Of a DNA stretch of 64,000 nucleotides, positions 21,367 through 53,545 are shown one piece after another. Made by a program: the position numbers and the translations under genes. The notes beneath the pieces were generated by a model, which saw nothing but the letters and a program-made list of their open reading frames with translations, was not told where the DNA came from and made no database searches. The number at the start of each line of letters is the position of its first letter. Position 1 is the stretch's first letter. The stretch comes from a virus. The stretch covers positions 1 through 64,000 of IMG/VR virus record IMGVR_UViG_3300033156_000392. The stretch is one strand, 5' to 3'.

Positions 21367-21554
21367 ACGGTGTGTACTACTGCATGAGCCATCTGCAGGG
21401 TCTAAGGGTCGTCTGTCCTCTCTGCAAGGAGTCTTTCATAGTCGCCAACTCGGAGAAGTACAGACATCTGGTTTACTCTAAGAACGGAGTTCTCAAGATA
21501 GTTTGTCCTCTTAAAATAAGAAAGAAAGGAGGTGAGAGAAAGTGCCTTCGCTGA
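21315..21554 (+). CDS. Cys-rich zinc-finger protein
   Basis: CSVC...YCMSH...CPLC...C. Confidence 0.55.
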   Translation: MGRKCSVCGRRKEGAEVNGVYYCMSHLQGLRVVCPLCKESFIVANSEKYRHLVYSKNGVLKIVCPLKIRKKGGERKCLR

Positions 21555-22513
21555 AGGACATAAAAGGGCTAGGGCCGAAGAGCATAGCAAAGCTTGAGGA
21601 GAACGGTATAACCAGCATAGACCAGATAGCGGGGATGGATCCTACTGAACTCATGAGAATCACTAGCTGGGGAAAGGCTCTGTGTGAGAGAGTGATAAAG
21701 GACGCAAAAGCTCTCTCCATAGACAACCTTATCCCACTACGGACAGCTGCAGAGGTCGAGGAAGAGAGAAAGAGCAAAGTCAAGTACTACTCCACTGGCT
21801 GTGTAGACCTGGACAAGATTCTCGGTGGTGGAGTGGAGACGGACTGCATACTCGGAGTAGCAGGACATTTGGGCTCTGGGAAGACCAACTTCTGCTTCTC
21901 AGTGGGAGTTTCATGCATCCAAGAGGGAAGAAAAGTCGTCTACATCGAGACTGAGCCTGGGATATTCAGGCTCGACAGAGTCCTGGAGATAGCAAAGAAC
22001 AGGAACGTCGACATGGATCCCAACGACTTTCTTGTGGTCGATGCAAAGGTCATAGACAACGACCCAGAGAAGCTCCTTCTCTCGTATGACAGAGTGGAGA
22101 AGGCAGTGAAGAACGGAATGGACATAGGTCTTCTCTGTGTGGACTCCTTTGCGGCTCCCATCAGGTCTTTCTACGTCGGAAGACAGTCTCTCGGAGACAG
22201 ATCAAAGATGATATCGAGGCACATCAGATCTCTGCAGAAGCTGGCTGCCAAGCACAATCTGGCCGTCATCCTGACCGACCAAGTGATGTCCCAGCCAGTG
22301 GCGGAGCCTGCTCTGCAAGCAATGACCGAGGCTATCTACGGCACACATAAGATACCAGTGCTCGGAGACACTCTCCTGCACTCAGTGACCATATGGCTCT
22401 CTCTTGAGAGAAGAGGAAAGAAGAAGTGGAGAGGGATAGCCTTCGATGCACCACACTTGCCCATTGGAGAGGCTTTCTTCTGCATAGGTCCAGCCGGAAT
22501 ACAGAAAATATAG
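21542..22513 (+). CDS. radA: RadA/Rad51-like recombinase
   Basis: N-terminal HhH (IKGLGPKS), LDKILGGG, Walker A GHLGSGKT, Walker B LLCVDS. Confidence 0.9.
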   Translation: MPSLKDIKGLGPKSIAKLEENGITSIDQIAGMDPTELMRITSWGKALCERVIKDAKALSIDNLIPLRTAAEVEEERKSKVKYYSTGCVDLDKILGGGVETDCILGVAGHLGSGKTNFCFSVGVSCIQEGRKVVYIETEPGIFRLDRVLEIAKNRNVDMDPNDFLVVDAKVIDNDPEKLLLSYDRVEKAVKNGMDIGLLCVDSFAAPIRSFYVGRQSLGDRSKMISRHIRSLQKLAAKHNLAVILTDQVMSQPVAEPALQAMTEAIYGTHKIPVLGDTLLHSVTIWLSLERRGKKKWRGIAFDAPHLPIGEAFFCIGPAGIQKI

Positions 22514-22514
22514 A

Positions 22515-23165
22515 GTGGCGGGTGAGAGAGTGCAGATACTGGTGGACGTCAAGGAGCCTCCAGTGATGAGAGAGAGGCTCGTGGAGCTGGGCTTCGACGT
22601 TAAGGTGGAGAAGCTCCAAGTGGGAGACTACCAAGTCGGAGAGTACGTGGTGGAGAGAAAGACAGTAAAGGACTTTCTCTCGTCCATACTGGACAGAAAG
22701 AGACCCGACAGATTCAGAGTGCAGCTGATGAACTTGGCAGACGTGGAGAAGAGAGCTCTGATCATAGAGGGGTACAGACCTTCCAGAAGGGAGAAGATAT
22801 ACAAGACGTACATAGGATGGATGGTGGGAATAGAGGACGGATGGAAGATACCAGTGTACGAGACGAGAGACGAGACGGAGACGGCTCTCCTCCTCCATTT
22901 CTTGTACAGGAGATCAAAGAAGAAAGAGTTCCTGAGACCAGTCAGGAAGAGAGGTACGTCTCTCAGAGAGAGGAAGGAGGACATTCTCTGCTGTGTCCCG
23001 GGAATAGGGAGGAAGCAAGCTAGAGCTCTCTTGGCTAGGGAGCCCGTCATAGGGAAGCTTCTCTCCCTCCCGAGAGAGGAGCTGGAGAAAATAGAGGGTG
23101 TGAGAAAGAGGTCCATAGACGAGCTCTTGAAGCACTTCTGGGAGAGTGGTGAAGATGATAGTTAA
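22515..23165 (+). CDS. xpf: XPF/ERCC4 structure-specific endonuclease (short form, nuclease plus HhH)
   Basis: GDY...VERKTVKDF motif; VPGIGRKQA HhH. Confidence 0.9.
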   Translation: MAGERVQILVDVKEPPVMRERLVELGFDVKVEKLQVGDYQVGEYVVERKTVKDFLSSILDRKRPDRFRVQLMNLADVEKRALIIEGYRPSRREKIYKTYIGWMVGIEDGWKIPVYETRDETETALLLHFLYRRSKKKEFLRPVRKRGTSLRERKEDILCCVPGIGRKQARALLAREPVIGKLLSLPREELEKIEGVRKRSIDELLKHFWESGEDDS

Positions 23166-23292
23166 GTACGTCTGTGGAGTCTGTGGATACACAAGTCCCG
23201 AAGTCAGGACAGACTCTCTCCTCACCGAGAGCAAGACGTGTCCAATTTGCTTCAGTCCTCTTGAGGTGGAGGTGGTGGAGGTGACGTCATGA
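23155..23292 (+). CDS. 45-aa zinc-ribbon protein (not in ORF track)
   Basis: YVCGVCG...TCPICF; translationally coupled on both sides. Confidence 0.6.
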   Translation: MIVKYVCGVCGYTSPEVRTDSLLTESKTCPICFSPLEVEVVEVTS

Positions 23293-24434
23293 AGATACTC
23301 CTTCTGGCAGCCTCTCCCTTCCTCCAGACGGCGTATGGGTACATAGGGAGGTGTCTCGGGAAGACTCTCGCTCTGAAGCACGAGGTGTACTACTTCGGAG
23401 CAAAGTACTACGGTCTCCCCTACTCGAGAGACGGGTACGTCCTTCTTCCCACTGCTCTCTCTTCCTCTGGCCAAGAGATAAAGACAGGGACGGAGAGAGC
23501 CATAGCAGCCATCAACAGAATAAAGCCTGACATCTTAGTTACTCTCGGGGACCTTCTCTTCCTCAAGTATCTTGAGGTCGTGAGAGAGAGGCCGTACTGG
23601 ATAGGATACTTCCCGGTGGAGTCCGATCCCTTCAGACCCTCAGAGATAGGAACCGCTAGAAAGATGGACTTAGCCGTTGTCCCGACTAAGTGGGGGCAGA
23701 GAGTGCTCAAGAGAGACGGTGTGGAGGCTGAGTACATACCACATCCCTTGAATCCCTCTTTCTACCACGTACGGAAGGAGAAAGCTAGGTCTATGCTCCT
23801 CACTACGGAGGACAGAGACCTAAAGAAACAGTTTATTTTCGGGTACTGTGGGACCAACGTCGAGAGGAAGAGAATAGACAGGCTGATGGAGGCTTTCAAG
23901 AGTGCTTTCAAAGGGGAGGAGGACGTTCTTCTCTGGCTGAACACTCCCACAACGGATCCTCTTGGCTGGGATCTGCCGTACATGTCAAAGGTGCTGGGGA
24001 TAGAGAAGCAGGTAGTCTTCACCTCATACATCGACTTCTTCCCTCCCTCTGAGGAGGAGCTGAACACCATCTACAACTCGTGGGACGTCCACGTCACAGC
24101 ATCCTCCGGAGAGGGATTCTGCCTCCCCGTCCTCGAGACTATGTCTCTCGGGAAGCCACAGATAGGGACGAAATACTCCTCTCTCCCGGAGCTGATAGGA
24201 GACTCCGGGATACTGGTTCCTCCTAGAGAGATAGTCTTCGGAAATCTTGGGCACAGAGCTCTGGTCGACATAGACCTTCTCGCAGAGGCTATGAGAAAGA
24301 TGTACGAGAACGAGGAAGCAAGGAGAGTTTTCTCTGCCAGAGCAGAGGAGAGAGGGAAGGAGTACGAGTACAAGAGAGTGATGACGCAGTGGCTCTCTCT
24401 CCTTGACAGAGTGGAGGAGGATCTCTTTGGCTAG
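23289..24434 (+). CDS. GT4-like (GT-B) glycosyltransferase
   Basis: GTNVERKRID, SSGEGFCLPVLETMSLGKP. Confidence 0.9.
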   Translation: MKILLLAASPFLQTAYGYIGRCLGKTLALKHEVYYFGAKYYGLPYSRDGYVLLPTALSSSGQEIKTGTERAIAAINRIKPDILVTLGDLLFLKYLEVVRERPYWIGYFPVESDPFRPSEIGTARKMDLAVVPTKWGQRVLKRDGVEAEYIPHPLNPSFYHVRKEKARSMLLTTEDRDLKKQFIFGYCGTNVERKRIDRLMEAFKSAFKGEEDVLLWLNTPTTDPLGWDLPYMSKVLGIEKQVVFTSYIDFFPPSEEELNTIYNSWDVHVTASSGEGFCLPVLETMSLGKPQIGTKYSSLPELIGDSGILVPPREIVFGNLGHRALVDIDLLAEAMRKMYENEEARRVFSARAEERGKEYEYKRVMTQWLSLLDRVEEDLFG

Positions 24435-25581
24435 GATACTGGTTCTCTCCAACTCTCCCTTGAACCCCTCCGGGTTCGGGACTGCATGTGACGTCATATG
24501 TAGGTCTCTGGCTGACAGACATGAGGTGATGGCTCTCCCCCTCTTCCTCCCTTCTCCGTCTCCTCTCTCCTTCAACGGCTACCAGGTCCTTCCTACAAGA
24601 CAGGGATTCTACTCTCTCATGAGAGAGAAGGAAGGAAAGTACCTGCTGGACTACTACTCTCCGGACTTGGTCATAACCATGTGTGATCTCTATCTCTTCT
24701 CCGGATTCAGACCCAAAGTTCCTTGGATAGCATGCTTCCCGGTCGACGGTGACCCTCCGAGACCCTCAGAGAGAGAAGTCTCAAAGATTCCAGACGTACT
24801 GGTAGCCATATCCAAGTTCGGGAAGAGAATGGTCAGGAAGTACTGGGGAGAAGACGCCGTCTACATTCCTCACGCCGTCTTGGACGACTTCAGGCCAGTA
24901 CGGAAAAAGAGAGCAAAGGAGGCGTTCGGAATAGACGCTGAGAAGATAGTATTCGGCTACAACGGGTCGAACGACGTGAGGAAGCTCCTGAACGTCCTTC
25001 TCCAAGCTTGGAAGAGAGCGTTCGGTGACAGTGATGACACTCTCCTCCTCCTGAACACTCCTCGTGTCAGGAACTCTCCGAGATCTTTCGACACCACTGC
25101 TCTCATAGAGGGACTCCAAGTAGAGAACTGTCTGATACCTTTCGAGACTCTCGTCAGACCTCCCTCAAGAGCAGAGATCAATCTTTTCTACAACGCTCTG
25201 GACGTCCACGTGATGGTGACTGGAGGAGAGGGATTCGGACTACCGATAGCCGAGAGCATGGCCTGTGGAGTCCCCAACATAGGGACGAACTTCTCTGCCA
25301 TCCCCGAGATCATGGGTGGAGGAGGGGTCAAGGTGAGAGTCAGAACCGTTCTCTTGGACACTTTCGGATCGGGGAAAGCCATACCGGAGGTCTCTGACGT
25401 AGCCAGGAAGATGAAGCTCCTGAAGGAGAGAGAGGAGCTGAGAAAGGAGCTCGGAAACTGTGCTCTCATGGAGGCTGACAGGTACAGAATGGAAAAGGTA
25501 GCTCCTCTCTGGGAGGACTTGGTGGAGAGAGTCCTCCAAGAAAAGTATATAAGGGGTAAGAGAAAGACTCTTCATAGGTGA
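24427..25581 (+). CDS. GT4-like glycosyltransferase, paralogue of the upstream gene
   Basis: GSNDVRK, GGEGFGLPIAESMACGVP; start assigned to TTG 24427. Confidence 0.9.
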   Translation: MARILVLSNSPLNPSGFGTACDVICRSLADRHEVMALPLFLPSPSPLSFNGYQVLPTRQGFYSLMREKEGKYLLDYYSPDLVITMCDLYLFSGFRPKVPWIACFPVDGDPPRPSEREVSKIPDVLVAISKFGKRMVRKYWGEDAVYIPHAVLDDFRPVRKKRAKEAFGIDAEKIVFGYNGSNDVRKLLNVLLQAWKRAFGDSDDTLLLLNTPRVRNSPRSFDTTALIEGLQVENCLIPFETLVRPPSRAEINLFYNALDVHVMVTGGEGFGLPIAESMACGVPNIGTNFSAIPEIMGGGGVKVRVRTVLLDTFGSGKAIPEVSDVARKMKLLKEREELRKELGNCALMEADRYRMEKVAPLWEDLVERVLQEKYIRGKRKTLHR

Positions 25582-25582
25582 T

Positions 25583-25744
25583 ATGATGGAAGAAATAACA
25601 GAAAAGAAAGTCGTACTAGGGAGCGTTCTGGCTGGCTTCGCTCTAGTGGGGTACGTTCTGAACTTCCACGAGCTGACAGCCATCATGATAGCTCTCTTGG
25701 CTGGTCTCTTCGGCTTGGAAGGGTACAACAAGCTCAAGAAATAG
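25583..25744 (+). CDS. 53-aa two-TM membrane protein (holin-like size; not in ORF track)
   Basis: MMEEITEKKVVLGSVLAGFALVGYVL...IMIALLAGLFGLEGYNKLKK with RBS AGGTGA. Confidence 0.55.
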   Translation: MMEEITEKKVVLGSVLAGFALVGYVLNFHELTAIMIALLAGLFGLEGYNKLKK

Positions 25745-25762
25745 ACAGAGAGAGGACTACAA

Positions 25763-27355
25763 ATGCCTTTTCGGATAGTCGTCGTCAATGCGTCTGGATA
25801 CGGAAACGCAGGTGACGATGCTCTGAACGAGGCTATTTTTTCCTACTTAAGAGAGCAGTTTCCAAGAGACTTTGTGGAGATAGAGAGGAAACACCCTGCT
25901 GATCCCTTGCCGGACTGTGACTTTCTCATCATAGGTGGAGGAGGACTGATATACGAGGAGCCCTTTGCCAACGTGGAGAACTACACCGGATACGCCTTTG
26001 AGGCGAAGAAGAGAGGAGTTCCATACTGCTACTTCGGCATAGGTGTCCAGTCTCCCATCAGGAAGTCGAGAGCGGTAGAAGCGTACAGAAAGGCTCTCTC
26101 CTCTGCCTTATTTGTCTCAGTAAGGAATCCTCACAGCCTGAATAGGCTAAAGGAGATAGGAATTCACTCCTTTCTTGGAGAGGACACTGGATGGCTCCTG
26201 AATCTCGGAAATAAGGGAGTAGAGAGCTCCAACGGTGTAAGAGTGGGTCTAGCGGCTAGAAACTTTCCGGAAGCAGAGTCTATAATGGAGAAGCATCTGA
26301 GGGGAATCGTCTCTTCTCTGAAAGGATACGACCTTCTTCTCTTCTCTCAGTCAAGAGTAGACGATGACGAGGTGATGGAGAGGCTCTCCGAGGAGCTCGG
26401 TGCCCCTCTCTTCAAGTACTCCGAGATGGAGGGGAGGCCGAGTGACTTTTTCTCTCTCCTGGGGAGCGTCGACGTCTTGGTTTCTTCTAGATTCCACTCC
26501 GCCCTCTACGCTCTGAAGATGGGTGTTCCCGTGGTCGGGATGACTGGTGGAGGAGGGAAGCTCTTCTCGCTCCTCTCGAGAGTCGGACTCGACGACTACA
26601 TGGTCAGGAAGACGGAGACGGAGAGAGTGGGTGAGAAAGTGGAGAAGATGCTGAGAGAGAGGAGCACCGCCAGACAGAGAATTGCTTCTTCTCTCCCTCT
26701 TCTCATGGAGAAGTGTAGAGAGAACTATCGTCTTCTGATGGAGTATTTGTATCCCTCGTATTTGGAGAAGGCGTACTCGTCCTCGTACTATAACGAGAGG
26801 AGCACCGGATGGTCTGGAGGATACAGGGAGGAGAGCCTGAGAGGAGCTATGGAGAGCTTCCTGGACGAGTGCAGAGAGAAGGGAATGCACCCGGAAGGTA
26901 AGACTCTGGTGGTGGGGTGTGCCAAAGGACTGATGGTCAAGATCCTGAAGGAGAGAGGTGTGGAAGCGACTGGTGTGGAAGTCTCTGCCGACGCTGTCAG
27001 AGAGAAAATGACGGAGCGGGTCGTGCAGGGGAGTATTCTCTCCGTTCCCTTCGGAGACTCGTCTTTCTCATGCACCGTCTGCTCAGACGTCTTGGAGCAT
27101 GTCCCAAGAGTCTTCTTACAGAGAGCTCTGGGTGAGCTTTCAAGAGTGACGGAGAGCTTGGTTATAGTCAAAGTCCCTGGGCCCAGAGTCACCTTTGATC
27201 CTACTCACATTTCCCTCTTTGACAGAGACGAGTGGCTCTCTCTTCTATCATCTAAGTTCTTCCTCCTGGGAGAGACGGAGTGGGCAGGGAACTTTGTCTT
27301 CTTTTTAAAGCCCAGAAAGGTTTTATACCACCCGGGGAGAGCTTTAGAGAGGTAG
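25763..27355 (+). CDS. Polysaccharide pyruvyltransferase-like domain fused to a class I SAM methyltransferase
   Basis: GYGNAGDD, IGGGGLI, SVRN, SSRFHS; then LVVGCAKG, GVEVS, SDVLEHV. Confidence 0.85.
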   Translation: MPFRIVVVNASGYGNAGDDALNEAIFSYLREQFPRDFVEIERKHPADPLPDCDFLIIGGGGLIYEEPFANVENYTGYAFEAKKRGVPYCYFGIGVQSPIRKSRAVEAYRKALSSALFVSVRNPHSLNRLKEIGIHSFLGEDTGWLLNLGNKGVESSNGVRVGLAARNFPEAESIMEKHLRGIVSSLKGYDLLLFSQSRVDDDEVMERLSEELGAPLFKYSEMEGRPSDFFSLLGSVDVLVSSRFHSALYALKMGVPVVGMTGGGGKLFSLLSRVGLDDYMVRKTETERVGEKVEKMLRERSTARQRIASSLPLLMEKCRENYRLLMEYLYPSYLEKAYSSSYYNERSTGWSGGYREESLRGAMESFLDECREKGMHPEGKTLVVGCAKGLMVKILKERGVEATGVEVSADAVREKMTERVVQGSILSVPFGDSSFSCTVCSDVLEHVPRVFLQRALGELSRVTESLVIVKVPGPRVTFDPTHISLFDRDEWLSLLSSKFFLLGETEWAGNFVFFLKPRKVLYHPGRALER

Positions 27356-27356: not shown

Positions 27357-28337
27357 ATGAGAGACTCTGAGATCAAGAAAGTCCTTCTCCGCTACCAGAA
27401 GGAGCTCATGTCCTATCCGAACGTGGTGGGAGTCTGTGTGGCAAGGAAGGTGGTGAGGGGAAAGAGGACGAGAGAAAAAGCCATCCAGGTTCTGGTGAGA
27501 GAGAAAGTCCCCGAGAAGTACCTGAGACCAGCACATGTTCTCCCGAAGAGGGTGGAGGAGGTGCAGACGGACGTTCTGGAGGTGGGTGAGATAAGAGCTC
27601 TTGGTCTCAGCGTCAGACCGTACTTGGAGAGAAAGAGAAAGTACAGACCCGTCGTCGGTGGAGTCTCGTGTGGGAATCCGTACATCACGGCTGGAACTCT
27701 TGGAGGATTCGTGGAGAAAGGAGGAAAGACATACATTCTCTCGAACTGGCACGTCCTTGGAGACGGTGCGAAGAAAGGGGATCCTATCCTGCAGCCTGGG
27801 AGATACGACTCTGGGACTCTTGCTGACGAAGTAGCCGTCCTGTCGGAGAAGATAGACGTGAGAACGAGGAGAGGACTTCTCTCTCTGATTCTCAGAAGGA
27901 AGGTGGAGAACAGGATAGACGCTTCCATAGCCGAGATGGTTACAGAGTACGATCCTAAGATTCTTGAGATAGGGTATCTGACGTCCGATCCTGTGAGAGC
28001 CAGAATAGGCGACAAAGTCCGGAAGTCCGGGAGAACCACTGGATACACGGAGGGAGAGGTGCTGTCAGACTCAGCCACCGTGAGAGTGAGCTATGACGAC
28101 GGTACGGCTCTCTTCACTGAGCAGATAATGACCTCTCCCATCCTGAAGCCTGGAGACTCAGGCTCATGGCTGGTGAGGGGGAAGAGCGTCTGTGGCTTGT
28201 GCTTTGCAGGATCTGACAGAGTGGGTCTCGCTAATCATGTCTCTGACGTCTTCACTGCCTTCAAGATAGAGAGAGTAGCTACTGGAGCGGACGTCCCAAA
28301 GAGGAGAAGAGTCGATCTCAGATTCTGTCCAGAGTGA
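27357..28337 (+). CDS. Trypsin-like (Nal1-type) serine protease
   Basis: AGTLG, LSNWHV, LQPG, DASIA, KSGRTTG, PGDSGS. Confidence 0.85.
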   Translation: MRDSEIKKVLLRYQKELMSYPNVVGVCVARKVVRGKRTREKAIQVLVREKVPEKYLRPAHVLPKRVEEVQTDVLEVGEIRALGLSVRPYLERKRKYRPVVGGVSCGNPYITAGTLGGFVEKGGKTYILSNWHVLGDGAKKGDPILQPGRYDSGTLADEVAVLSEKIDVRTRRGLLSLILRRKVENRIDASIAEMVTEYDPKILEIGYLTSDPVRARIGDKVRKSGRTTGYTEGEVLSDSATVRVSYDDGTALFTEQIMTSPILKPGDSGSWLVRGKSVCGLCFAGSDRVGLANHVSDVFTAFKIERVATGADVPKRRRVDLRFCPE

Positions 28338-28830
28338 GGTACTTCTCGCTCGCTCTTATCTCTCTCACCATCCTCTGGAGCTCATGAGAGAGGAGCTCTG
28401 CCTTGTGTACGGGTAGAAAGAGAGTTTCTCTCCCCACCCCTATCTTTATTCCTGTGTCGAGCTTGGTGACCGTCACTATCTTTGTAAGTGCTTTCCCTTC
28501 CTTGTAGAAGACTCCTCTGTACTTCTTCCTGTCCCTATCATCTCTCTTCTTAGGTTTCTTCGGAAGCATCTTCACCACCGGAGGAGAGGAGGTGTGTAGC
28601 CAGTGCTCCAAACACCTCTTTCTCTATCTTCTCCCAGCACTCCTCACACATTCTGATCTCCATGCTCAGGGACTTTCCCTCCAGAAGGACTCTGACCGTT
28701 CCTTGCTTCCCACACTTGCACTTGAACGCCCTGTTCTCGGTGTCAGCAAGCTTCCATTTGACGTCTGTAGACCAAGAATACCAAGGGTAGTGCTCGTAGG
28801 TGGTAGAGGGAATGTCTGTGCTCTCAGAAG

Positions 28831-29730
28831 TCATTTTTTACTCCTCCTCAGAGGCTTGTACACGCTTTGGAGCCAGTTACTCTTCAAGGGTAACACACGT
28901 ATCTTGTGGTGAGCCTTCCCAAGGTCGTTTTCTTTCGGAAAGAGAACCCATCTTGGTGTCCTAGCTATGTTCTGCATCTTCTCATAGACTCTAAGGAGTA
29001 CTCTCCTGTCTCCTTTTCCGTTATTCTCCTTGATATAGTCTTTTATCTGGTGTTTAAGGTCTATGAAGAGTCTTCTTGCGTATAACCACTTGTTAACACC
29101 TCTGATCAGTAAAATCTCCCTTACTAGCTCCTCTTCCTCCGTACTGAGAGAAAAGAGATCGGATATGTCTCTCACGACCAGCTCGGGGTGGTTCTGGGCG
29201 TAGCTGTCTATGGTGGAGGGAGAGGCTCTCGACAGCTCGTCAAGAACTCTCTTTCTCCTGTAAACTATGCTTTCTATTTTCTTCTCTATCTCACTGTCTT
29301 CCTTCTTCAAGTCTTCTGAAGTGAGGATGAGAACGCTCAGACCGAGTCTTGAGAGCCATTTCTGCCTCCTTCTGTCTTTCTCCTCTGCGTCTCCAAGTCT
29401 ATGCCATATCTTTGGTGAAACTTCTATCACGAGTCTCCAGTAGGGGAGAAGAAAGTCGAGAGAGTAGTATCCAGTCTGTTTCTCGTTCTGTATCTTGAAG
29501 TTGTGGTAGAAGTCCTCCCCTTCCACCAGACCCATTCTCTCTAGTATTCTCTTTATTCTCTTCTCCTCGGAGCTCCACTTCCCGTTCCGTTCGAAGCGGT
29601 GCATCACCTCCCCACACAGAACTCTGAAGTTTGCTCTCTTGATTCTCCCTTTCTTGACGTCTTCTATCACTCTCTTCTCCAGACGTCTGATTCTCTCTCT
29701 CAGCCTCTGAATCTCTTTTTCTTTCTTCAT
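28831..29730 (-). CDS. DUF559/Vsr-like endonuclease domain protein
   Basis: SSEEKRI...YSLDFLL...LVIEV...WH...KDRRRQKWLSRLGLSVL. Confidence 0.7.
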   Translation of the reverse strand: MKKEKEIQRLRERIRRLEKRVIEDVKKGRIKRANFRVLCGEVMHRFERNGKWSSEEKRIKRILERMGLVEGEDFYHNFKIQNEKQTGYYSLDFLLPYWRLVIEVSPKIWHRLGDAEEKDRRRQKWLSRLGLSVLILTSEDLKKEDSEIEKKIESIVYRRKRVLDELSRASPSTIDSYAQNHPELVVRDISDLFSLSTEEEELVREILLIRGVNKWLYARRLFIDLKHQIKDYIKENNGKGDRRVLLRVYEKMQNIARTPRWVLFPKENDLGKAHHKIRVLPLKSNWLQSVYKPLRRSKK

Positions 29731-29858
29731 TCAGCCTTCACCCTCTTCACTCTCTCCTCTCTCGTCTTCCAGAATATCCTTCCCCCACAGTAGGGACATA
29801 TGGGCTTCTCGAGCTTCTCGAACTTTCTCCAGCATCTTTCACACTTGTACACCTTCAT
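29727..29858 (-). CDS. RNA polymerase subunit Rpo12 (RpoP)-like zinc ribbon, 43 aa (not in ORF track)
   Basis: MKVYKCERCWRKFEKLEKPICPYCGGRIFWKTREERVKRVKAE; RBS GAGGAGG; coupled to the next gene. Confidence 0.7.
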   Translation of the reverse strand: MKVYKCERCWRKFEKLEKPICPYCGGRIFWKTREERVKRVKAE

Positions 29859-30688
29859 CCCTCCTCCTCACAGAAGTCTAAAAAAATAGTTACTTTAGGA
29901 GTGTCTGTGTCACTTTTCATGAGTAACATTCTTCTGTTCTTGGACTTTGTCACTTCGTCACTCTCCCAAGTTTCTTTTTTTTCACCCAGTTTTTAAGTCT
30001 AGTGATTGTTTATAAACTCTTGAAGAGTTCTCTGAGGTAGGAGAGCCTGAACCTCCGTTCCTTTCCACAGTGTGAGCAGTAGAGAAGAGTCGTCTTTCCG
30101 TTTCCTTCTTTCAGAGTCTCTTCTCTCGTCAGAATGTTGGTCGAGACTCTCATGCATCTCTTGCATACCCACTTCAGAGCTATCATGTTTTTCATATCTA
30201 CTCCTCCCTTTTTCCTTTATCCGAGGACCAGAACGAAACGTACTTCCATCCTTTCTTCAGAAGCTTGGAGAGATTTACCTCCGTTTCCCACTTCAGCTCG
30301 ACATCGTATCCGTATTTCTTGAAGATGTAGAGGACGAGATAGGGCTCTCTCAGCCACTCATCTCCGAGAGGCCAGAGATTGTCGGCTATGAGAAGAAGGG
30401 TCTTCAAGTCAGTCATAGTCAGATCCTTGTACTTCTTCTCCATCACGTCCAGTGCATCTTCGGAGGCTCTTTCGAAGGTGGAGAAGGAGTTCAGGACTCT
30501 CTCCCACTCTTCTTCCTCAATATGGATGTTTCCGAGATCCCATACCAGTTTCAGAGTGGGAACCAAGAGGTACTGATGAGTGCTCATGCTTCATGCACCT
30601 CGTCCTCAAAGGACGAACTCTGTTCTCTTGCTTCTGTCTTCTCCATCGGGTAAACCTCTCCCAAGAGTAATAAAAGGGTTGTGGTTGT

Positions 30689-31249
30689 TTATAAACTGGG
30701 AAAGGACCATACGTCGGAATAACGGAGAAAGAGAGTCGTATAGTAGAGAGCGTCGTCCAGAGCTCTGTGTCTTCTTCCTTGCATCGGTACTTCTCGGTAG
30801 ACAACACTGTTTATTTCTCTCGGTCTTACTCCTCTTGACGAGGCCAGCTGGTGCTTCAGACTTATGTGTCTATCCAAGAGGCGAAGAATGGATCCCTCAT
30901 ATCCTTTCATCTTTGCTTCTCGGAGAATTTGTTTCTTGTCATAGAAGCCCCAAGAGCACATGACGGTTTTCTCTTTCCCTATCCATTTCTCGAACTCTTG
31001 CATGGCCTCGTGGAATACTTTTCCTCCGTCCACGTCCTTCTGCTCTATGCCAGTGAGCCTAGTGCAGTACTCGGAAAGTACCGGATTGAGAACTGGTCTG
31101 ACTAGGAGATTGAAGGTGTCCGCTCGCTCTGGTGGAGAGCCCAGCACTCTCACGGCTCCTATCTCTATGATTTCGCTGCTGTGCCTTTGTTTTTCTTTAT
31201 CCGCCCAGCACGTCGCCTCCAGATCGAATATTATGTACTGTGTCATCAT
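30689..31249 (-). CDS. DEDDh 3'-5' exonuclease (ERI1/KapD-like)
   Basis: FDLEATC, EIIEIGAV, WGFYD, HRALDDA. Confidence 0.9.
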   Translation of the reverse strand: MMTQYIIFDLEATCWADKEKQRHSSEIIEIGAVRVLGSPPERADTFNLLVRPVLNPVLSEYCTRLTGIEQKDVDGGKVFHEAMQEFEKWIGKEKTVMCSWGFYDKKQILREAKMKGYEGSILRLLDRHISLKHQLASSRGVRPREINSVVYREVPMQGRRHRALDDALYYTTLFLRYSDVWSFPSL

Positions 31250-33076
31250 ATCACCTTTTGGTTCGGACCTGTATAAAACAGTGTCTGAAGATTTATAAAC
31301 TTCTCTCTTTTTCTCTTCTAAGGAGAGAGGCTATCCTGTCGCAGATAGTACAGGGCAGGAGTCCTCTCTTTTTCCCTTCCTTGTTCAGAGACTCGTATCC
31401 GTGCTCAATGAGAGCGGCCATGTGAGAGAATTCTACCGAGTCAAGCTTCAGGACGTAGTTCCCGAACAGAGTTCTTTTTATCTTCATGTCCTCACTTCAA
31501 GACTTTTTCTTGCCTCCCTCATACTTGAGTCTTAGAAGAGCGTTGGTCAGCTGGAAAACTATTCTGTTTCTCTCCTTCCAGCTCTCAGAGAGGAGAAGGA
31601 GTTCGAGAAGCTCGTGCACCAGGACTCTCTCGTTTGACGCCCCCACGATAAAGTGTCTCTCGTTCACTCCCTCTCTGACGTACCCCTCCCAGCCCTCTGT
31701 TCTCTCAAGCTCCACTCCGAGATCACAGAGCCCGAGTCTGTGCTGCCACTCCTCAAGGAGATACATGAGCTCCTCCATCGTCACTTCTCCCTCGCTCTTC
31801 TTGCACCACTCAGGCTTGTTACTCTTGATGAGTAACTTTCTCTTTTTGGCTCTACTCATGCTCCTCTCCTCTCTTCTTCTTTTTCAGACGAACTATCTTT
31901 GAGGCTATCAGGTAGACTATGGCCGCCTTGTGCTGTATCTCTTTCTCTTCCGGCTTCCTTGGATAGCAGGTGCCCATGACGTACAGAGCACTGGCGTACG
32001 CCACTATCTTGGAGAGACCCTTAACTTTTTTCTCACTTATCTCTAAACATCTCTTGAAGAGATCTATGTTCCCTAGATAGTACAGGTTCTTTCTCTTTCT
32101 CTTGATCTCTCCCTCTCTGACCATGTCTTCCAAGAGAGTCCCGAAGTACTGACACTCTCTGTCACCACATATCCAGCACTTTCTCTTTCTCACTTTCTCA
32201 CCAGCTTGTTCCAGAACCTCTTTCCGACCTTCTTCAGGAGTCTGGCCGAGGGCTTCTTTCTCGAGACGGAGACGTATCCGTTGTACCAGCCCCACAGGTA
32301 CGTCTCTAGCAGTGTCTTGTCAATAGTGAGGAGAAGGATGGCTAGCTCTTTCTCTTCCCCGCTCTTTCTCATGCAGAGAGCACCTCCATCTTCTTGTTTC
32401 TCTCTCTGCAGTACCTTCTCAGCTCTCTCAGATAGTACGACTTGATGTCTTTCTCGATCCTTATGATCTCATCCTCCACGAAGTGAACACCCCTGACCGT
32501 GAGCACCATGAGAGTTCTGGTGTACGAGAGCTTTCTCGGTCCTCTGAACCTGGCTCTGAAGGAAACGTTTCTATTTTCCTTCTTCTCCAGGTAGGACTTT
32601 AGCTTCTTCTTGAAAGTCTTGAAGAAGCCTTTTGGACCGTACTTCATGTACAGATACACGTCTACGACAAACACTCTCAGACCTCCAGAACCGTCACTCT
32701 GTCAACGAAGAGGCGACAGGAGAGAGGAGTCGTGAAAGATCTCTTCCTTCTTCCCGTATAGACGTCCAGTGGGTGCAGGAGTTTCTCTAACATTCTCTCT
32801 CCCTCTGGGAGGACGTTTCTCTTCTCCTTCACTATCTTCATGGTGTATCCGTTGTTGACACTCGCCGTAACTAGGTAGGCAGTTCTGCAAGGAAGATCGA
32901 AGTCGATGCATACGTTCAGATAGGAAGTGGTATCGAAAGAAACTGACTTGTTCTCTCTCAGGAGAGAGCTGTACGCCTTGCTCTTCTCTCTTATCCACTT
33001 CTCTCTAGCAGTCTTAGAGCCTATCAAGAAGTAGTACTCCGCCTTGCCGTTGACCGTCACAGTCACCAGAGAGTAC

Positions 33077-33436
33077 TCACCCTTCTCCAATCTTCTGGTC
33101 ATGCAGCTCCCCCTTTCCGTGCCTTTCTCTCTTATGCTCTCTCACTTCCTCCCATGTTAAGAATTCTTTCCCACACTCTCCACATACAAAGACGCTCTCT
33201 ATGTGGAGCTTCAGAAGGTAGATGAAGTAGAGAAAGGTGAGAAGGATGAGAAAGAGAAAAGAGAATCCTAGTACGTACGCACCATTCCCGAGCATGAAGC
33301 AAGAAGCGATAAGTGAAAGGGCAAGTCCTATCGAATAGAAGAACTGAAGGCACTTCATGGGGTTTAGGATGTGGAGAAAGTCTTTTTTAAAACCTTTCCA
33401 CAGCCACTTCCAGAATCCTCTCTCCATGCTACTCAC
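33077..33436 (-). CDS. Two-TM membrane protein with C-terminal C2H2 zinc finger
   Basis: Hydrophobic pair followed by FVCGECGKEFLTWEEVREHKRERH. Confidence 0.6.
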   Translation of the reverse strand: MSSMERGFWKWLWKGFKKDFLHILNPMKCLQFFYSIGLALSLIASCFMLGNGAYVLGFSFLFLILLTFLYFIYLLKLHIESVFVCGECGKEFLTWEEVREHKRERHGKGELHDQKIGEG

Positions 33437-34818
33437 CTCCTTTCTTTGAAGTCTGGTTTCGTGACTTCTTTGCTCTCTCGCTCTTCTCTCTCACTTTCAG
33501 GAGTTCTCTGAGCATGAGCTTCCATACTTCGCAGAGAATGTAGAATTTCTTTATAAACAGTCTTTTTACGACAGAAGCTTTCTCACTGTATCCGATCACG
33601 TACACCTTTCCGTTCTTCTCTCGATAGAAGCCGACAAAGAAGATTTCCTCCGGCTCGAGAGTGACTCTGAACGTCATTTCCTTCCCTCGATCACTGACAT
33701 GTGAGCATACTTTCTTCTTTCTATTGACTCTAACTTTCGATCTCTTGGTGTTTCTCCCACTTCTTTCTGGTGGACAGATTGTAGCGGGGAGAGGACAGGA
33801 CTTCTTCTTGCATCCTTTACATCTTGAGTGTATCATTCGTTCACCTCTCTCAGCTTCTCAGCAGCTTTGCATAGCAGAAAGACTAGTGCGAAAACCGGGA
33901 GGAAGAAGTAGTATACGAAAGTCTCCCACTTTGAAGGATAGTATACTCTGAAAGGATGGTCTACGGCCAACAGACCAGCTAGGAAGTATGCCACAAGACC
34001 AGTGACGATCCAGTCGATCCAGCTCACACGTTCACCTCCTCATTTTCTTGAATGAATTTCTGAATCTTCTTATGACTCTTCATTCGCTTCCAGTGTTTTT
34101 CAAGAACTTCAAGAATTTTCGAGGCAAGATTGGCACTTCTCATATCTTTTGTTAATAAAGCGGTCGCCTGAAGTTGGGCGTAAATCAAATTCAACTCATG
34201 TAAGTTCAGTTCAATTCTCACAGTAGTTTGTTTCTGCTCATTCTCAAATTCAGATAGAAGTTTTGCATACTCCTTGCCTAACTGAAACTCTTTTTGAATT
34301 TGTTTCCAATCTTCAAGATTTATTCCATTCACCCGCTCACCTCCTCATCTTCCATCATTTGTTCAATTTCATCTTCACTGAAAGTCGTTCGGCATCGAGG
34401 ACAAATTCCTCTGCCACTCGGAAGTTGCTCGATGTATGAATTTTGGCAGTTGGGACAGATTAGAGTTAATTCAGCCATCACCGCTCACCTCCTCATCTCC
34501 TAACCTTTCCACAACTTCAACTATGAAAAACGGAACTGTTTTGTAGTGGCTTCTGAAAAATGCTTCAGCACAAAGCTTTGCGTCGTCCAAATTATCATAC
34601 GCTCCTATCAGTTCTAAAGAGGTGCATTTTGAACAAGTTTCTTTGACAACCCAATATTTCCGTTTTATGAGTTCACTCACGACGGTTCACCTCTTCGTAG
34701 TCCATACACTCACCTTCGTCGTTTATAGTAATTACACGTTTCTCACAGAATTTCCTCTCTCCAGTGAGTGATAGAGCAGTTCTGTGTACACACTTTTCTC
34801 GATAGCATCTGATACTCG

Positions 34819-35340
34819 TCATTTCTCAACCTCCACTACCTTTACCTTGTCAGCCCAATCAAGACACATCCCCATCTTGAAGGCTTCTTCGAGAATCTTC
34901 TGAATAGTCGCTGGAGCAACAAAGCTCATGAAGATCCTGAACTTCTCCTCATCGGAGCGTAGGAACTTGTCAGTGAACTGTCTCGCCTCTATCTCCAGCT
35001 GTCTGACGTAGGATGTGGAGTATCTTCCCTTTCGTTCTTTTCTCTCTGTCCTCTTGACTTCGTGGATGTAGCCCCAGTCGCTCTCTCTCATACCGAGTTC
35101 TCGGATAGCCTCTTTCCATTCTCTCAAAGACTTGAAACCGGAGTCTTTCACGAACAGATGGAGCATAGAGGGACTTGCCTCCGTCCTCCAAACGACCTCG
35201 ATGTCACATATCTTTTTCCCTCCTCTCCTGTCAGTCGCCCAGTCTCTTCCGTACTTGTGGGGCTTCTTTCTGAACGTGTAGACCACACCCTTCTCGAGGA
35301 GCTGTCTTCTGGCTTTCTCGTTCTGGAATATCATCACCAT
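34819..35340 (-). CDS. ASCH/PUA-like domain protein
   Basis: LLEKGVVYTFRK...DSGFKSLREW pattern. Confidence 0.5.
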   Translation of the reverse strand: MVMIFQNEKARRQLLEKGVVYTFRKKPHKYGRDWATDRRGGKKICDIEVVWRTEASPSMLHLFVKDSGFKSLREWKEAIRELGMRESDWGYIHEVKRTERKERKGRYSTSYVRQLEIEARQFTDKFLRSDEEKFRIFMSFVAPATIQKILEEAFKMGMCLDWADKVKVVEVEK

Positions 35341-35563
35341 TTGTCACTACCTCCTCTCACCGATCACGACTGTTATTTCTTCACCGTTCTTTACTGGAAA
35401 GTTGTTCTTTTCCACGAAGGCAGTCCATTCCTTCGTTTCTTTCGACCAAAAGAAGTTCACAAGTCTCTTTGCCAGTTCCTTCCTGTATTCAATCGGTATT
35501 CTCCCACTGAACTCGAGAACCACTTTTATTTGAAGCTTATTGTGATCCATGAGAGTACCTCCT

Positions 35564-35749
35564 TCAATCAACTCCGAGGAGTGACTTTAGTACCTGGAAG
35601 AGAATTACTATCGTCTCGTCTCTGTCTATCTCCACACTCGTTCTCTCTCCTTCGTCTTTCAGTACGATGGAGTAGCAGATTCCTCTCTCCGGTCCTCCAT
35701 AGAAGCGGTGTATTTCTATTTTGTCGGTATCGTACACCTTCATCTTCAT
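35564..35749 (-). CDS. Hypothetical protein, paralogue A (RFxGG..RG.CYS)
   Basis: Similar to 37032-37235. Confidence 0.6.
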   Translation of the reverse strand: MKMKVYDTDKIEIHRFYGGPERGICYSIVLKDEGERTSVEIDRDETIVILFQVLKSLLGVD

Positions 35750-35891
35750 CAGACTCTATTACTCACATGGTTTTATAAGCGTATTCAAAGTTTATAAACA
35801 AGGAGAAGTGTTATAAGGCGTTATGCTTTCTTTCTCTCTCCCCTGAAAAGTATTTAAGGACTGAATCAAGAAGTTAGAGAGGTGAGTACAA

Positions 35892-36197
35892 GTGCCAAAG
35901 AACGACATTCTCGCCTGGGACAGAAAGTCTGGAGCGGGAAGCATAACGGCTTCTGTGAACTGCTTGGACGTCACCAACAACCGAGTCTTTCCCCATCTTG
36001 AGGTCTTTGTAGCTTCTACCACGGCTAACGACTTCTACGTCGAGTGCTCCACCGACAACAGTGTCTGGAGACTGGCTGAGACCATATCTGTGTCTGGTAC
36101 GTCTGAGATGAGAGGATACTTGAACGCCTACCCGTTCGTAAGAGTCAGATCTGGGAGTCAGGGAACCAACGAGGTGGAAGTCGTAGCCTCGGGGTGA
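35892..36197 (+). CDS. Putative virion accessory protein
   Basis: Beta-rich; first gene of a + cassette with TATA (TATTTAAG near 35851) and RBS. Confidence 0.55.
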   Translation: MPKNDILAWDRKSGAGSITASVNCLDVTNNRVFPHLEVFVASTTANDFYVECSTDNSVWRLAETISVSGTSEMRGYLNAYPFVRVRSGSQGTNEVEVVASG

Positions 36198-36201
36198 TGC
36201 T

Positions 36202-36576
36202 TTGCCGTTTAGCTTCATAAGGAGAAGAGGAGACAAGATAGTGGGACAGATAGAGATGGTCACCACTGACCCAGTGATACAGATGACGAACGATGACGGA
36301 GTCTCTGGTGGCATAGCAGTCACCTCTGAAGGGTTCAACATGAGCTCTGGAGACACTTCTGTCCAAGTCTCTGAAGATGGTCCAGTCCTGCTCACTCCCG
36401 CTCCAAGTTATGGGATCAAGTTCGACACGTCTGGTACTATGCCGACTGCTGAAGAAACGTACAGAGGGCAGCTCTTCATAGTCTACGATGACCAGCCTGA
36501 GGGAAAAGACAGAGTGTACATTTGCCTGAAGTCTGCATCTGACAACTTCAACTGGGTCGAGATAGCAAGAGGATAG
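36202..36576 (+). CDS. Putative fibre/adhesin-type protein
   Basis: MPTAEETYRGQLFIV...RVYICLK...NWVEI resembles LPSTGRPGEVYY...LYVYK...AWTEI in the tail tip protein. Confidence 0.55.
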   Translation: MPFSFIRRRGDKIVGQIEMVTTDPVIQMTNDDGVSGGIAVTSEGFNMSSGDTSVQVSEDGPVLLTPAPSYGIKFDTSGTMPTAEETYRGQLFIVYDDQPEGKDRVYICLKSASDNFNWVEIARG

Positions 36577-36587
36577 GAGGTGTTAGG

Positions 36588-36854
36588 ATGGGTGTTACTC
36601 CTAAAGGATTCAGGACTCCTGACGAGAAGGTCATCATAGAGGACGGTAAAGTCCTGAGTAGGGGTGTACAGGTCAAGGACGAGGCTGAAGTGACTGTCTT
36701 TGAAGTAACGGGAGAAGGAAGTGTTTTCCATGGTAAGTCCAAGCATGAGCAAGATCCCTCGGTACTCGGTGGAATCGTCATGTACTCACCGACGAAGAAG
36801 TGGAGACTTACGGTTTCCGATACTGGACAGATCGTCACGACTCAAATCGAGTAG
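36588..36854 (+). CDS. Putative virion/fibre protein
   Basis: C-terminal GIVMYSPTKKWRLTVSDTGQIVT resembles short fibre repeat motifs; RBS. Confidence 0.5.
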   Translation: MGVTPKGFRTPDEKVIIEDGKVLSRGVQVKDEAEVTVFEVTGEGSVFHGKSKHEQDPSVLGGIVMYSPTKKWRLTVSDTGQIVTTQIE

Positions 36855-36857
36855 GAG

Positions 36858-37046
36858 GTGAGTGAAGTGCCTGACATGGTTGAGAGGACTGGTGGAGAAA
36901 CATGGGGAAAGAAAGACGTCACCCTCAATGAGGGACAGACCATAGAAATCCGTGTCGACGGAGTAGCTACAATCACCGCTACTGTCCCTACAGGGAAGAA
37001 GTTTGTCGGAACCTACGGCTACTGGGGCGTCCTAGCTTCTCTCTGA
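36858..37046 (+). CDS. Small beta-rich protein
   Basis: RBS; last gene of the + cassette. Confidence 0.5.
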   Translation: MSEVPDMVERTGGETWGKKDVTLNEGQTIEIRVDGVATITATVPTGKKFVGTYGYWGVLASL

Positions 37047-37235
37047 GCCCTTCAGTCCCTCCGTCCAGTTCAGCTCGTGCAACAATCTTAGGACAATCTG
37101 GAACAGCTCATCCTTTCTGAACTCTGTGTATCTTCTCGAGTCCTTCACCGTCAGAGAGTAGCATGTTCCTCTCTGTATGCCTCCCCAGAAACGCTTTATT
37201 GTTATTTTCTCGTTATCTATGATTTCTGTTCCCAT
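37032..37235 (-). CDS. Hypothetical protein, paralogue B (RFxGG..RG.CYS)
   Basis: Similar to 35564-35749; RBS. Confidence 0.6.
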   Translation of the reverse strand: MGTEIIDNEKITIKRFWGGIQRGTCYSLTVKDSRRYTEFRKDELFQIVLRLLHELNWTEGLKGSERS

Positions 37236-37257
37236 GCTCTACACCTCCTTCTTTTTT

Positions 37258-37740
37258 TTATCTCTCCACTTTCAGCTTCTCAGCCACACTTTTCTTTTCG
37301 GTGGAGAGAAAGACCAAGATCATTCCGAAGACCGATCCAGCCATTGAAGCCATTCCTAGGTCCACCCCTCCCACCCAGAAGTGAATTCCCTCCAGTATCC
37401 CGTACGCCAGCTGAGTTCCAAGCCAGTACAGGCATGCCAGTCTTGCGTAGTAGTCCGGAGCCTCGTCAAGCCACCACAGGTAGAAATACAGGAAGAGAAG
37501 GAAGCATCCAAGACCTCCTATAAATGCTACTGCCACCAGTGTCGCTCCTGAGAGTCCGTCTATGACCGTGTATCCGGAGAAGAAGAGATACTTCACCTCT
37601 GCAGTTCCTCCAAGGGCTCTTGTTAGAGTTGCGTGTCCGTACTCATGGAAAGCTACAGTGACCATGGAGAAGACCAGAAACGCAGTGAGGAAATCGACAA
37701 GGTGAATTATTCGCTCTTTGTTCTTCTTGCTGAGTTTCAT
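37258..37740 (-). CDS. Membrane-embedded zinc metalloprotease-like protein (M50-like)
   Basis: FHEYGH within a TM segment; about 4 TM helices. Confidence 0.65.
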   Translation of the reverse strand: MKLSKKNKERIIHLVDFLTAFLVFSMVTVAFHEYGHATLTRALGGTAEVKYLFFSGYTVIDGLSGATLVAVAFIGGLGCFLLFLYFYLWWLDEAPDYYARLACLYWLGTQLAYGILEGIHFWVGGVDLGMASMAGSVFGMILVFLSTEKKSVAEKLKVER

Positions 37741-38155
37741 AACATCACCTCTCGGTAGCTACTCTTCTCTTTCTCTTATAAGAGCTATGATTGTTTATAA
37801 ACTTCTCGTACTGCTTGGCTGTCCAGCATGCTCCGCAGAGAGGACCTTTCTCGTCTCTGAAGGCATAGACGCCTCCCGGAAGGTCGGAGTGGCACTTATT
37901 ACACTTGTATCCTGTCACAATGCACCCCATCCCTTTCTCTCCATCTCTCTGAGAGCTATTCTCAGACACTTCCTGCACTCCTTCTCGTCACCGTTCGCCA
38001 GTGCCTCTATCGACCAAGCCAGCCACTCTATGCTCTCGGAGTACCAGTCCTTGTCAGCGACTCTCTCTGGGTCAGAGAGTCTTGCTATGAGTCTTGCCAG
38101 ACCAGCTATCAGCTCTCTTCTCTCCCTGTCAGAGTGTAGCTTCATCCTCCTCTCC

Positions 38156-38462: not shown

Positions 38463-38549
38463 AAACTCACCTCCTTGAGTGGATAGTGAACATTCTTCGC
38501 TTCTTCCCTTTCCCCACCCAGAACCTGACTTTCTTTCCTTTCTCTCTCC

Positions 38550-42059: not shown

Positions 42060-42080
42060 CTAAAATAACTGTTATTTTAG
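42060..42080. promoter_or_regulatory. 21-bp palindromic operator-like site (perfect copy)
   Basis: CTAAAATAAC-T-GTTATTTTAG just upstream of gene start 42048. Confidence 0.75.
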
Positions 42081-44815: not shown

Positions 44816-44828
44816 TTTCTACCACCTC

Positions 44829-47244: not shown

Positions 47245-47245
47245 G

Positions 47246-48518: not shown

Positions 48519-48519
48519 A

Positions 48520-53468: not shown

Positions 53469-53545
53469 TTTCTACCACCTCCTTATCTTTCTCTCTCAAA
53501 CTATGTATGGGGATCGCTAATAAAGTGTATGGGAGAGAGACGTTC

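Follow-up and report, generated by a model that had tools for sequence, protein, structure and literature searches.

A homologue of the RNA polymerase subunit Rpo12, with no further polymerase part found, in the genome of a tailed archaeal virus

Viral proteins that bind the RNA polymerase (RNAP) of the host without being subunits of it are known from both prokaryotic domains, ORF145/RIP of ATV being an example from archaea and AsiA, gp33 and gp55 of T4 examples from bacteria. Here we describe a protein of 43 amino acids (aa) that is homologous to a subunit of archaeal RNAP itself, Rpo12 (RpoP), and is encoded by an open reading frame (ORF) on the minus strand of IMG/VR record IMGVR_UViG_3300033156_000392. 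This record is a complete virus of 73,253 bp, with 114-bp direct terminal repeats and an estimated completeness of 100%, and the window, meaning the whole stretch of DNA that was analysed and to which all coordinates refer, comprises its first 64 kb (positions 1 to 64,000). The source is a tailed archaeal virus that carries the Rpo12 homologue and in which no further polymerase part was found. The inferred purpose of the protein is the same as that of the ATV and T4 proteins, namely to redirect or shut down host transcription by means of a small viral protein. These proteins are, however, unrelated to RNAP subunits, whereas the one described here is the homologue of a subunit of the core assembly platform; its mode of action would for this reason be substitution or stoichiometric imbalance, not inhibition from outside.

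According to a review (PMC5569661), archaeal viruses encode no RNAP and rely wholly on the host enzyme, and in passages of an archaeal virome survey RNA polymerase appears as RNA-dependent RNA polymerase (RdRp) only. Virus-borne homologues of archaeo-eukaryotic RNAP subunits are a feature shared with the nucleocytoplasmic large DNA viruses. African swine fever virus (ASFV) and vaccinia, as described in PMC10881513, encode the catalytic core and most small RNAP subunits and lack RPB12. The present virus shows the inverse pattern, with Rpo12 alone and no catalytic subunit among the scanned ORFs. Searches of 96 ORFs against Pfam and of 23 small ORFs against NCBIfam detected no further RNAP subunit or basal transcription factor family, the last 9 kb of the genome having been checked for RpoP only. 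Catalytic Rpo1/Rpo2-like subunits were likewise absent from those 96 and 23 ORFs, and on this coverage the genome does not qualify as encoding a multisubunit RNAP.

The gene, the elements directly upstream of it and the parts of its product map as follows.

29727..29858 (stop included), minus strand: Rpo12/RpoP homologue, an ORF of 43 aa with an ATG start, from the ORF list and from profile and PDB matches
29787..29843, minus strand: zinc ribbon, C6 to C24 (CxxC, 11 residues, CPYC), from the alignment to 65 cellular RpoPs
29730..29768, minus strand: basic C-terminal tail, K31 to E43, with K31 and R33 in 65/65 cellular RpoPs
29859-29869, minus strand: Shine-Dalgarno-like purine run GAGGAGGAGGG, 11 nt, of GGAGG type, directly 5' of the ATG, read from the sequence
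29878..29898, minus strand: 21-bp palindrome of the CTAAA-N11-TTTAG family, 20 nt 5' of the Rpo12 start codon, from the repeat count

The RpoP family is represented by the models NF001604-NF001608 in NCBIfam and PF03604 in Pfam. The top five NCBIfam matches of the viral protein were all RpoP equivalog models (E 6.5e-10 to 1.4e-5), with a full-length RpoP alignment covering model positions 2-44 of 44, and the sixth family followed at E 0.036. The four best PDB chains were Rpo12 of Saccharolobus/Sulfolobus, Thermococcus and Pyrococcus (2pmz_P, 7ok0_P, 4qiw_P and 8cro_P; E 1.6e-6 to 8.6e-5), and their alignments extend through the C-terminal KxR...VKA tail. Eukaryotic Rpb12 (RPABC4, of Pol I, II and III) shares the homologous zinc ribbon and the basic tail, but it differs in having an N-terminal extension and was matched much more weakly in the PDB search (E 0.13-1.1). 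An exhaustive, filter-free phmmer search over 1.84 billion protein representatives returned 11 proteins at E <=0.001, of which one is the query, six are longer (159-3291 aa) and match over stretches only, and four have 42-44 aa. These four are 45-50% identical to the viral protein; three of them are named RpoP by NCBI or JGI and come from Hadarchaeota or Aenigmatarchaeota, and the fourth carries no name. A profile search (A3) gathered 1227 RpoP-like proteins, and among the 120 listed none was more than 59% identical to the viral sequence.

We also built a hidden Markov model (HMM) from cellular RpoPs alone (65 distinct sequences), leaving the virus out. The viral protein scored 54.2 bits against this model (E 3.4e-17), the lowest training sequence scoring 63.3 bits. 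Among the 1643 frames of at least 25 aa in the viral genome, the model matched the Rpo12 ORF alone (53.9 bits, with the next frame at 14.2). Nine other small CxxC...CxxC ORFs of the virus served as a negative control; none of them matched the RpoP HMM, and eight of the nine, searched against NCBIfam, returned generic zinc-ribbon families or nothing.

The zinc ribbon cysteines are C6, C9, C21 and C24 of the 43 aa, and all columns that are invariant in the 65 cellular RpoPs are kept in the virus (Y4, C6, C9, C21, P22, C24, G25, I28, K31 and R33). The RpoP-specific residues among them (Y, CPYCG, I28, K31 and R33) are each found in 63-65 of the 65 sequences; since this sample was chosen by motif patterns, the conservation of CPYCG is partly true by construction, and counts such as 0/65 describe the sample and are not family-wide. 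The virus is gapped at five loop columns, and its inter-knuckle loop has the length of the shortest one in cellular RpoPs; a short loop is also present in the Hadarchaeota, Aenigmatarchaeota and Micrarchaeota of the sample. W10 and F13 set the viral protein apart from this motif-chosen sample (0/65), yet Sulfolobales Rpo12 has both; further diverged positions are W30, E34, E35 and R36. The cellular proteins used for comparison (P0004, P0010 and P0011, loci L009-L014 and the solved chains) have the same overall make-up, with 41-48 aa, a CxxC...CPYCG ribbon, the invariant Y, I, K and R, a basic KxR...K..KA tail and a matching predicted fold. The earlier note had proposed that the match runs past the cysteines into the basic tail, and this is borne out by the retention of K31 and R33 and by the extent of the PDB alignments.

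The AlphaFold2 model of the viral protein (pLDDT 75.4) has a predicted fold that is Rpb12/Rpo12-like. Foldseek placed Rpb12/Rpo12 chains (chain L or P of an RNAP) at every rank from 1 to 12, with TMq values of 0.59-0.72 and probabilities of 0.85-0.99; the chains at ranks 1 and 3-9 are Rpb12.

Some of the results weigh against an ordinary Rpo12. In Pfam, the Rpb12 model PF03604 reached only 14.9 bits (E 0.022) and rank eighth among 19 families, below the generic zinc ribbons DZR_2 (PF18912; 23.1 bits) and Zn_ribbon_8 (PF09723; 21.2 bits). No curated cut-off was attained, the scores being 38.7 against 72 for NF001606 and 14.9 against 24 for PF03604, and no Foldseek match reached E <=0.001 (best 0.11), as expected for 43 residues. 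The tail is also less basic, with a net charge of +3 and three acidic residues, compared with +5 in 46/65 cellular RpoPs; E34 occurs in 0/65 and E35 in 3/65 of them. Yeast work cited by Reich et al. (PMC2680338) indicates that the charge of the tail matters. The reduced charge was considered as a sign of a dominant-negative protein, and this was rejected, since +3, though low, does not lie outside the span of 0 to 6 seen in cellular RpoPs.

The generic zinc ribbons miss their own cut-offs (23.1 against 27 for DZR_2, 21.2 against 34.4 for Zn_ribbon_8) and match the cysteine knuckles to the exclusion of the tail (residues 6-27 and 4-26, respectively). Cellular RpoPs encoded next to rpl37ae also fall short of the curated thresholds (L010, 55.2 against 63; L009, 52 against 84), as do proteins named RpoP at source (P0004, 41 against 63; P0010, 34.6 against 72), and the viral score of 38.7 lies within the range of bona fide RpoPs that miss them. 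Because these four genuine RpoPs miss every one of the curated cut-offs, the latter are too narrow for these lineages. The outcome that the earlier note had named as damaging, a score no better against Rpo12 than against generic zinc ribbons, does occur in Pfam and is reversed in NCBIfam, where RpoP models are best, and in the controls, including our own cellular HMM. On sequence evidence, the NCBIfam and PDB results and the controls outweigh the Pfam ranking, and the viral protein is very probably a member of the Rpo12/RpoP family, though a diverged one. The original identification as a virus-encoded Rpo12/RpoP-like microprotein is thereby upheld by RpoP-specific profiles, Rpo12 chains in PDB, an unbiased search, the invariant columns and the predicted fold.

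To place the protein among its cellular relatives, we carried out a genome scan in which 600 motif matches yielded 270 relatives, and the best 80 were kept. Archaeal RpoP-sized ORFs made up 79 of the 80 kept loci, and L061, a 321-aa bacterial protein matching residues 1-29 only, was dropped from the set. The highest identity, 61% by tblastn, was to L009 from an Aenigmarchaeota metagenome-assembled genome (59% over 41 aligned columns in the tree alignment), and Hadarchaeota came next with 43-50%. In the maximum-likelihood RpoP tree (80 rows, 48 columns), the terminal branch of the virus measures 1.4 against a median of 0.068, making it about 20 times longer, and its composition is deviant. No supported clade in this tree holds the virus, and by path length it lies closest to Hadarchaeota rows. 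The phylogeny suggests a donor neighbourhood (Hadarchaeota/Aenigmatarchaeota) and, contrary to what the earlier note had expected, does not point to the host. The viral copy thus differs from cellular Rpo12 in being virus-encoded, in its roughly 20-fold branch, in its identity of at most 61% and in its more acidic tail. The genomic setting differs as well. In L009 and L010, rpoP lies immediately downstream of rpl37ae, and in L010 it is found among exosome and prefoldin genes, whereas this rpl37ae-rpoP context and the exosome/ribosomal cluster are absent at the viral locus.

Searches for the protein in other viruses are all of limited sensitivity for a sequence of 43 aa. In 50,697 GenBank phage and archaeal-virus records, tblastn with the viral protein gave chance matches only (E >=7), and three cellular RpoPs gave nothing at E <=0.1, in a search that would miss RpoPs below about 50% identity. 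Scans of IMG/VR (2.9 million contigs) see the motif CP[YH]CG[SG][RK]I only and would pass over Sulfolobales-type RpoPs; the scan with RpoP alignments produced 13 stretches, none of which was confirmed. A second IMG/VR scan produced 261 stretches and one confirmed protein (L094), which has 104 aa, lacks the KxR tail and was rejected as an RpoP. With the DUF559 neighbour of the gene as query, the IMG/VR scan detected no relative; with the capsid protein it detected 5 distant loci (30-36% identity), and a metagenome scan with RadA returned an identical 2.9-kb contig only. Neither a word-based protein search nor the profile search contained a viral-looking close relative, and full-text literature searches returned no report of an Rpo12 in an archaeal virus, although the supplements of surveys might list RpoP-like annotations. 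What is shown, then, is the gene itself, its homology to Rpo12, its location in a virus and its status as a singleton: an archaeal virus encodes a core RNAP subunit homologue alone, in a case that comes from one uncultured genome.

The surroundings of the ORF bear on whether it is expressed. Upstream of the ATG the frame remains open for just three codons (a 46-aa open frame), and the start codon is therefore unambiguous. The TGA stop overlaps the ATG of the downstream gene (ATGA), and a gap of 151 nt separates the ORF from the previous gene.

28831..29730, minus strand: downstream gene of 299 aa with a DUF559 (Vsr-like endonuclease) domain (Pfam DUF559, E 1.2e-6, residues 73-153)
30010-30195: previous gene, a 61-aa zinc-ribbon ORF without family assignment, flanking the Rpo12 homologue on the other side
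29878-29898, 42060-42080, 51376-51396, 51792-51812, 56878-56898, 57151-57171, 57204-57224, 58770-58790 and 59881-59901; also 44829-44849, 17249-17269 and 40575-40595: sites of the 21-bp palindrome

With <=3 mismatches allowed, the window contains 7 copies of the palindrome, whereas 100 shuffles led to an expectation of 0, which bears out the palindrome copy that had been noticed upstream of the ORF at 29878-29898. About 11 sites were found genome-wide, mostly 12-47 nt 5' of minus-strand start codons, and they most often take the form of a perfect inverted repeat centred on a single base. The sites mark junctions between minus-strand transcription units; two copies lie within genes and two overlap gene ends. 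The element probably serves as a promoter element, as an operator to which a dimeric regulator binds or as an oligo-T terminator. The ORF with the residues first quoted for it, its ribosome-binding site and its upstream palindrome were all found as described in the sequence and the ORF list. The ribosome-binding site, the coupling to the downstream gene and the repeat 5' of the ORF suggest that the gene is expressed, probably as the first gene of a transcription unit starting in the palindrome-bearing gap. Among the sequencing runs listed as holding this DNA, none is from RNA.

The ORF is purine-rich on its coding strand (0.70), like the neighbouring genes, and it is intact in contigs of a strain variant of about 98% identity (runs X1 and X2, which may be one data set filed twice). 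Across 29745-30078 this variant shows at most one substitution and lacks 1 nt at position 29975, which lies in the intergenic gap 5' of the palindrome, and so little variation is insufficient for a test of selection. In the window segment 27000-33000 its substitutions cluster at 28160-28541 and 32339-32430.

Studies on cellular Rpo12 outline what a viral copy could do. The Pyrococcus RNAP lacking this subunit (P) assembles but does not form stable open complexes; a C-terminal 17-residue peptide of P, which corresponds to the viral tail and in which K37 and R39 are conserved, is sufficient for basic RNAP functions in vitro, and a zinc-ribbon mutant of P is loosely bound and displaced by the wild-type subunit (PMC2680338). 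In a study on M. maripaludis (PMC13556214), RNAP subunits are reported to be kept in balance, and excess Rpo12 to result in an Rpo3/12 subcomplex, less Rpo3/11 and holoenzyme, and slow growth. According to PMC10881513, initiation complexes have Rpo12 in the vicinity of TBP, and the Rpb2 wall is loosened when Rpo12 is missing.

Taken together, these data suggest a scenario in which a tailed archaeal virus captured rpoP from a cellular lineage with a short zinc-ribbon loop, the nearest ones being Hadarchaeota and Aenigmatarchaeota, and in which the captured copy would now be a fast-evolving paralogue of archaeal Rpo12/RpoP. The viral protein would dock at the Rpo12 site of the host platform, on Rpo3 and next to the Rpo2 wall, a placement that is the most economical because the ribbon and the functional tail residues are both kept. 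Newly assembled host RNAP could then take up the viral protein in place of host Rpo12, and this could shift initiation in favour of the virus, given the position of Rpo12 near TBP and the need for it in stable open complexes. Alternatively, at high dose, the protein would trap Rpo3 in dead-end Rpo3/Rpo12 complexes, leaving less new host RNAP; in view of the Rpo12 dosage phenotype, even an ordinary Rpo12 would perturb assembly if a phage-like operon expressed it strongly. The retention of the tail favours incorporation into RNAP. We consider capture and docking on Rpo3, followed by incorporation or by sequestration of Rpo3, to be the best explanation of the locus, with a probability of roughly 0.55. 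More tentative, and on the doubtful side, is the extended proposal that an Rpo12 variant built into the enzyme, or poisoning its assembly through Rpo3, shifts promoter opening near TBP towards the palindrome-marked viral units and curbs the biogenesis of host RNAP.

Docking on Rpo3 was addressed with a modelled complex, using a Hadarchaeota Rpo3 as a stand-in that is not the protein of the host. The model scored 0.44, compared with 0.20 for the best of three controls; its runs have at least 87% of contacts in common, with a partner pLDDT of at least 66. In the calibration of this procedure, the mark was reached by 58/80 solved complexes and by 2/110 mismatched pairs, and scores <=0.60 comprise 7/80 solved complexes and both of the mismatches that passed. 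The model was graded as weak support, which tells against a confident assignment of binding, and as Rpo3-Rpo12 complexes have already been solved, the pass may reflect likeness rather than binding. The modelling advocated in the earlier note was in this way carried out with a stand-in partner and gave a score above the controls, at that grade. The idea of a swap or titration of a host subunit, put forward in the same note, is plausible in the light of the experimental precedents, and the evidence from the present locus is this model.

Further observations count against the proposed mechanism. Wild-type P resists displacement from assembled RNAP (PMC2680338), which speaks against a swap into pre-existing enzyme, and only newly assembled enzyme would for this reason be affected. 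The viral gene is also a singleton, with no viral relative found on which purifying selection could be tested. Lastly, binding to RNAP could have been lost, as the long viral branch and the odd composition would allow.

Loss of binding is the basis of one of two competing explanations, both of which we regard as unlikely. In the first, the gene would be a passenger, a captured host rpoP without a specialised role that provides at most Rpo12 dosage and that may have arrived with the DUF559 gene. It is the sole RNAP-related gene found in the virus and was seen in no other virus searched, its sequence is ordinary for RpoP at the invariant positions, and it adjoins a DUF559 gene of a type often found as a selfish insert. 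The Atlas neighbours of this DUF559 gene are indeed DUF559 clusters, several of them inserted in viral portal proteins or inteins, and the gene itself is probably a selfish element akin to homing endonucleases and not a functional partner of the Rpo12 homologue. Nonetheless, the length of the viral branch (1.4, the median being 0.068) and an identity of at most 61% argue against a recent neutral capture, and despite this divergence the invariant residues, start codon, ribosome-binding site and operon coupling are all intact. Dosage is also unlikely to be neutral, since extra Rpo12 is described in PMC13556214 as harmful to RNAP assembly in M. maripaludis, the only archaeon in which this was tested.

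The second explanation, which we likewise judge improbable, holds that a former Rpo12 has lost its binding to RNAP and has become a small zinc-ribbon factor binding nucleic acid or protein, for instance in connection with viral DNA or the replication machinery. The long branch and odd composition, the less basic tail with E34 and E35, the ranking of generic zinc-ribbon models above PF03604 and the grade of the complex model are all compatible with such a change, and PMC7544198 reports the recruitment of RpoP-like zinc modules into DNA polymerases. Against this, Y4, P22, G25, I28, K31 and R33 are RpoP-specific, and their retention would be unexpected without selection on the RNAP interface; the alignment to the RpoP model is, moreover, full-length. 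That the ORF is no gene, and has arisen by chance in an intergenic or antisense stretch, has just its length of 43 codons in its favour and is hardly tenable, being effectively refuted by the homology statistics and contradicted by the ribosome-binding site, the ATGA coupling, the purine bias of 0.70 and the intact frame in the strain variant.

Beyond the Rpo12 locus, the genome encodes virion proteins (HK97-type capsid, tail tube, Mu-like portal and large terminase), and proteins of replication and repair (family-B DNA polymerase [PolB], RadA and an ERCC4 nuclease). Further genes code for Alba, for sugar-modifying enzymes and for a MoxR-type ATPase accompanied by a VWA-like (DUF2201) metallopeptidase.

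13503-13775, minus strand: Alba chromatin protein homologue (Pfam Alba, E 7.7e-9; NCBIfam Alba below cut-off)
16794-19139, minus strand: family-B DNA polymerase, from a library scan
21542-23165, plus strand: RadA recombinase followed directly by an ERCC4 (Hef/XPF-like) nuclease, from a library scan
23289-27355, plus strand: two GT1 glycosyltransferases and a polysaccharide pyruvyl-transferase/methyltransferase fusion, from a library scan
27357-28337, plus strand: protease of 326 aa (phrog_20754, E 9.5e-64)
44829-50423, minus strand: tandem array of paralogues, each about 205-245 aa long, from BLASTP
52209-53468, minus strand: DUF2201 metallopeptidase/VWA-like protein, from a library scan
54287-55384, minus strand: MoxR-type AAA ATPase, from a library scan

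Alba represents a second small host-type nucleic-acid-binding protein of this virus, besides the Rpo12 homologue. PolB is 25% identical to the PolB of haloarchaeal tailed viruses. Relatives of RadA (P0024-P0026), with identities of 74, 54 and 52%, are carried by other contigs, which are probably related viruses. The protease is 31.5% identical to a putative serine protease of Aeropyrum coil-shaped virus, a likeness that provides a link to viruses of hyperthermophilic Thermoproteota. The GT1/pyruvyl-transferase block, located between the replication and early-gene blocks, suggests glycan modification of the virion or of the host surface. The MoxR and DUF2201 genes form a paired module on the minus strand (52209-55384), with one 244-aa ORF (53546-54280) in between. 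In the tandem array, BLASTP ties seven paralogues together (E 1e-29 to 8e-4); their N-termini are coiled-coil-like and rich in E, K and R, and a Pfam scan gave no meaningful family for them, one member having a sub-threshold CHASE3 match.

The composition of the viral proteome is extreme (E 10.6%, K 9.4%, R 9.0%), and its IVYWREL fraction of 0.483 is a figure inflated by crude gene calls that favoured purine-rich frames; by the relation ascribed to Zeldovich et al., such a value reportedly points to a hyperthermophile. The coding strands are strongly purine-rich, and composition and purine bias are consistent with a hyperthermophilic archaeal host. To our knowledge, tailed viruses of hyperthermophilic hosts have rarely been described. 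Searches aimed at the host returned no match between the DNA of window positions 28000-47999 and 66 Hadarchaeota genomes, with four candidates scored per genome, which makes this comparison a poor search for spacers. The terminase was found in 0/66 Hadarchaeota genomes and in 2/301 genomes of the phylum of G002, there at 23-27% identity only, and searches with RadA, PolB and the protease gave distant cellular or viral relatives only.

The few known viral regulators act on host RNAP from outside, and the presence of one core subunit suggests substitution or stoichiometric sabotage instead. If this proves true, archaea would provide the first example of a virus that takes over its host by replacing an RNAP subunit. 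The subunit concerned, Rpb12 in eukaryotes, is the one typically missing from large eukaryotic DNA viruses that encode full polymerases. Should the protein have the proposed effect on RNAP, it would also constitute a natural probe of the poorly understood role of Rpo12 in promoter opening and assembly, and a direct test of the idea is feasible, as the archaeal enzyme can be reconstituted either with subunit P or lacking it.

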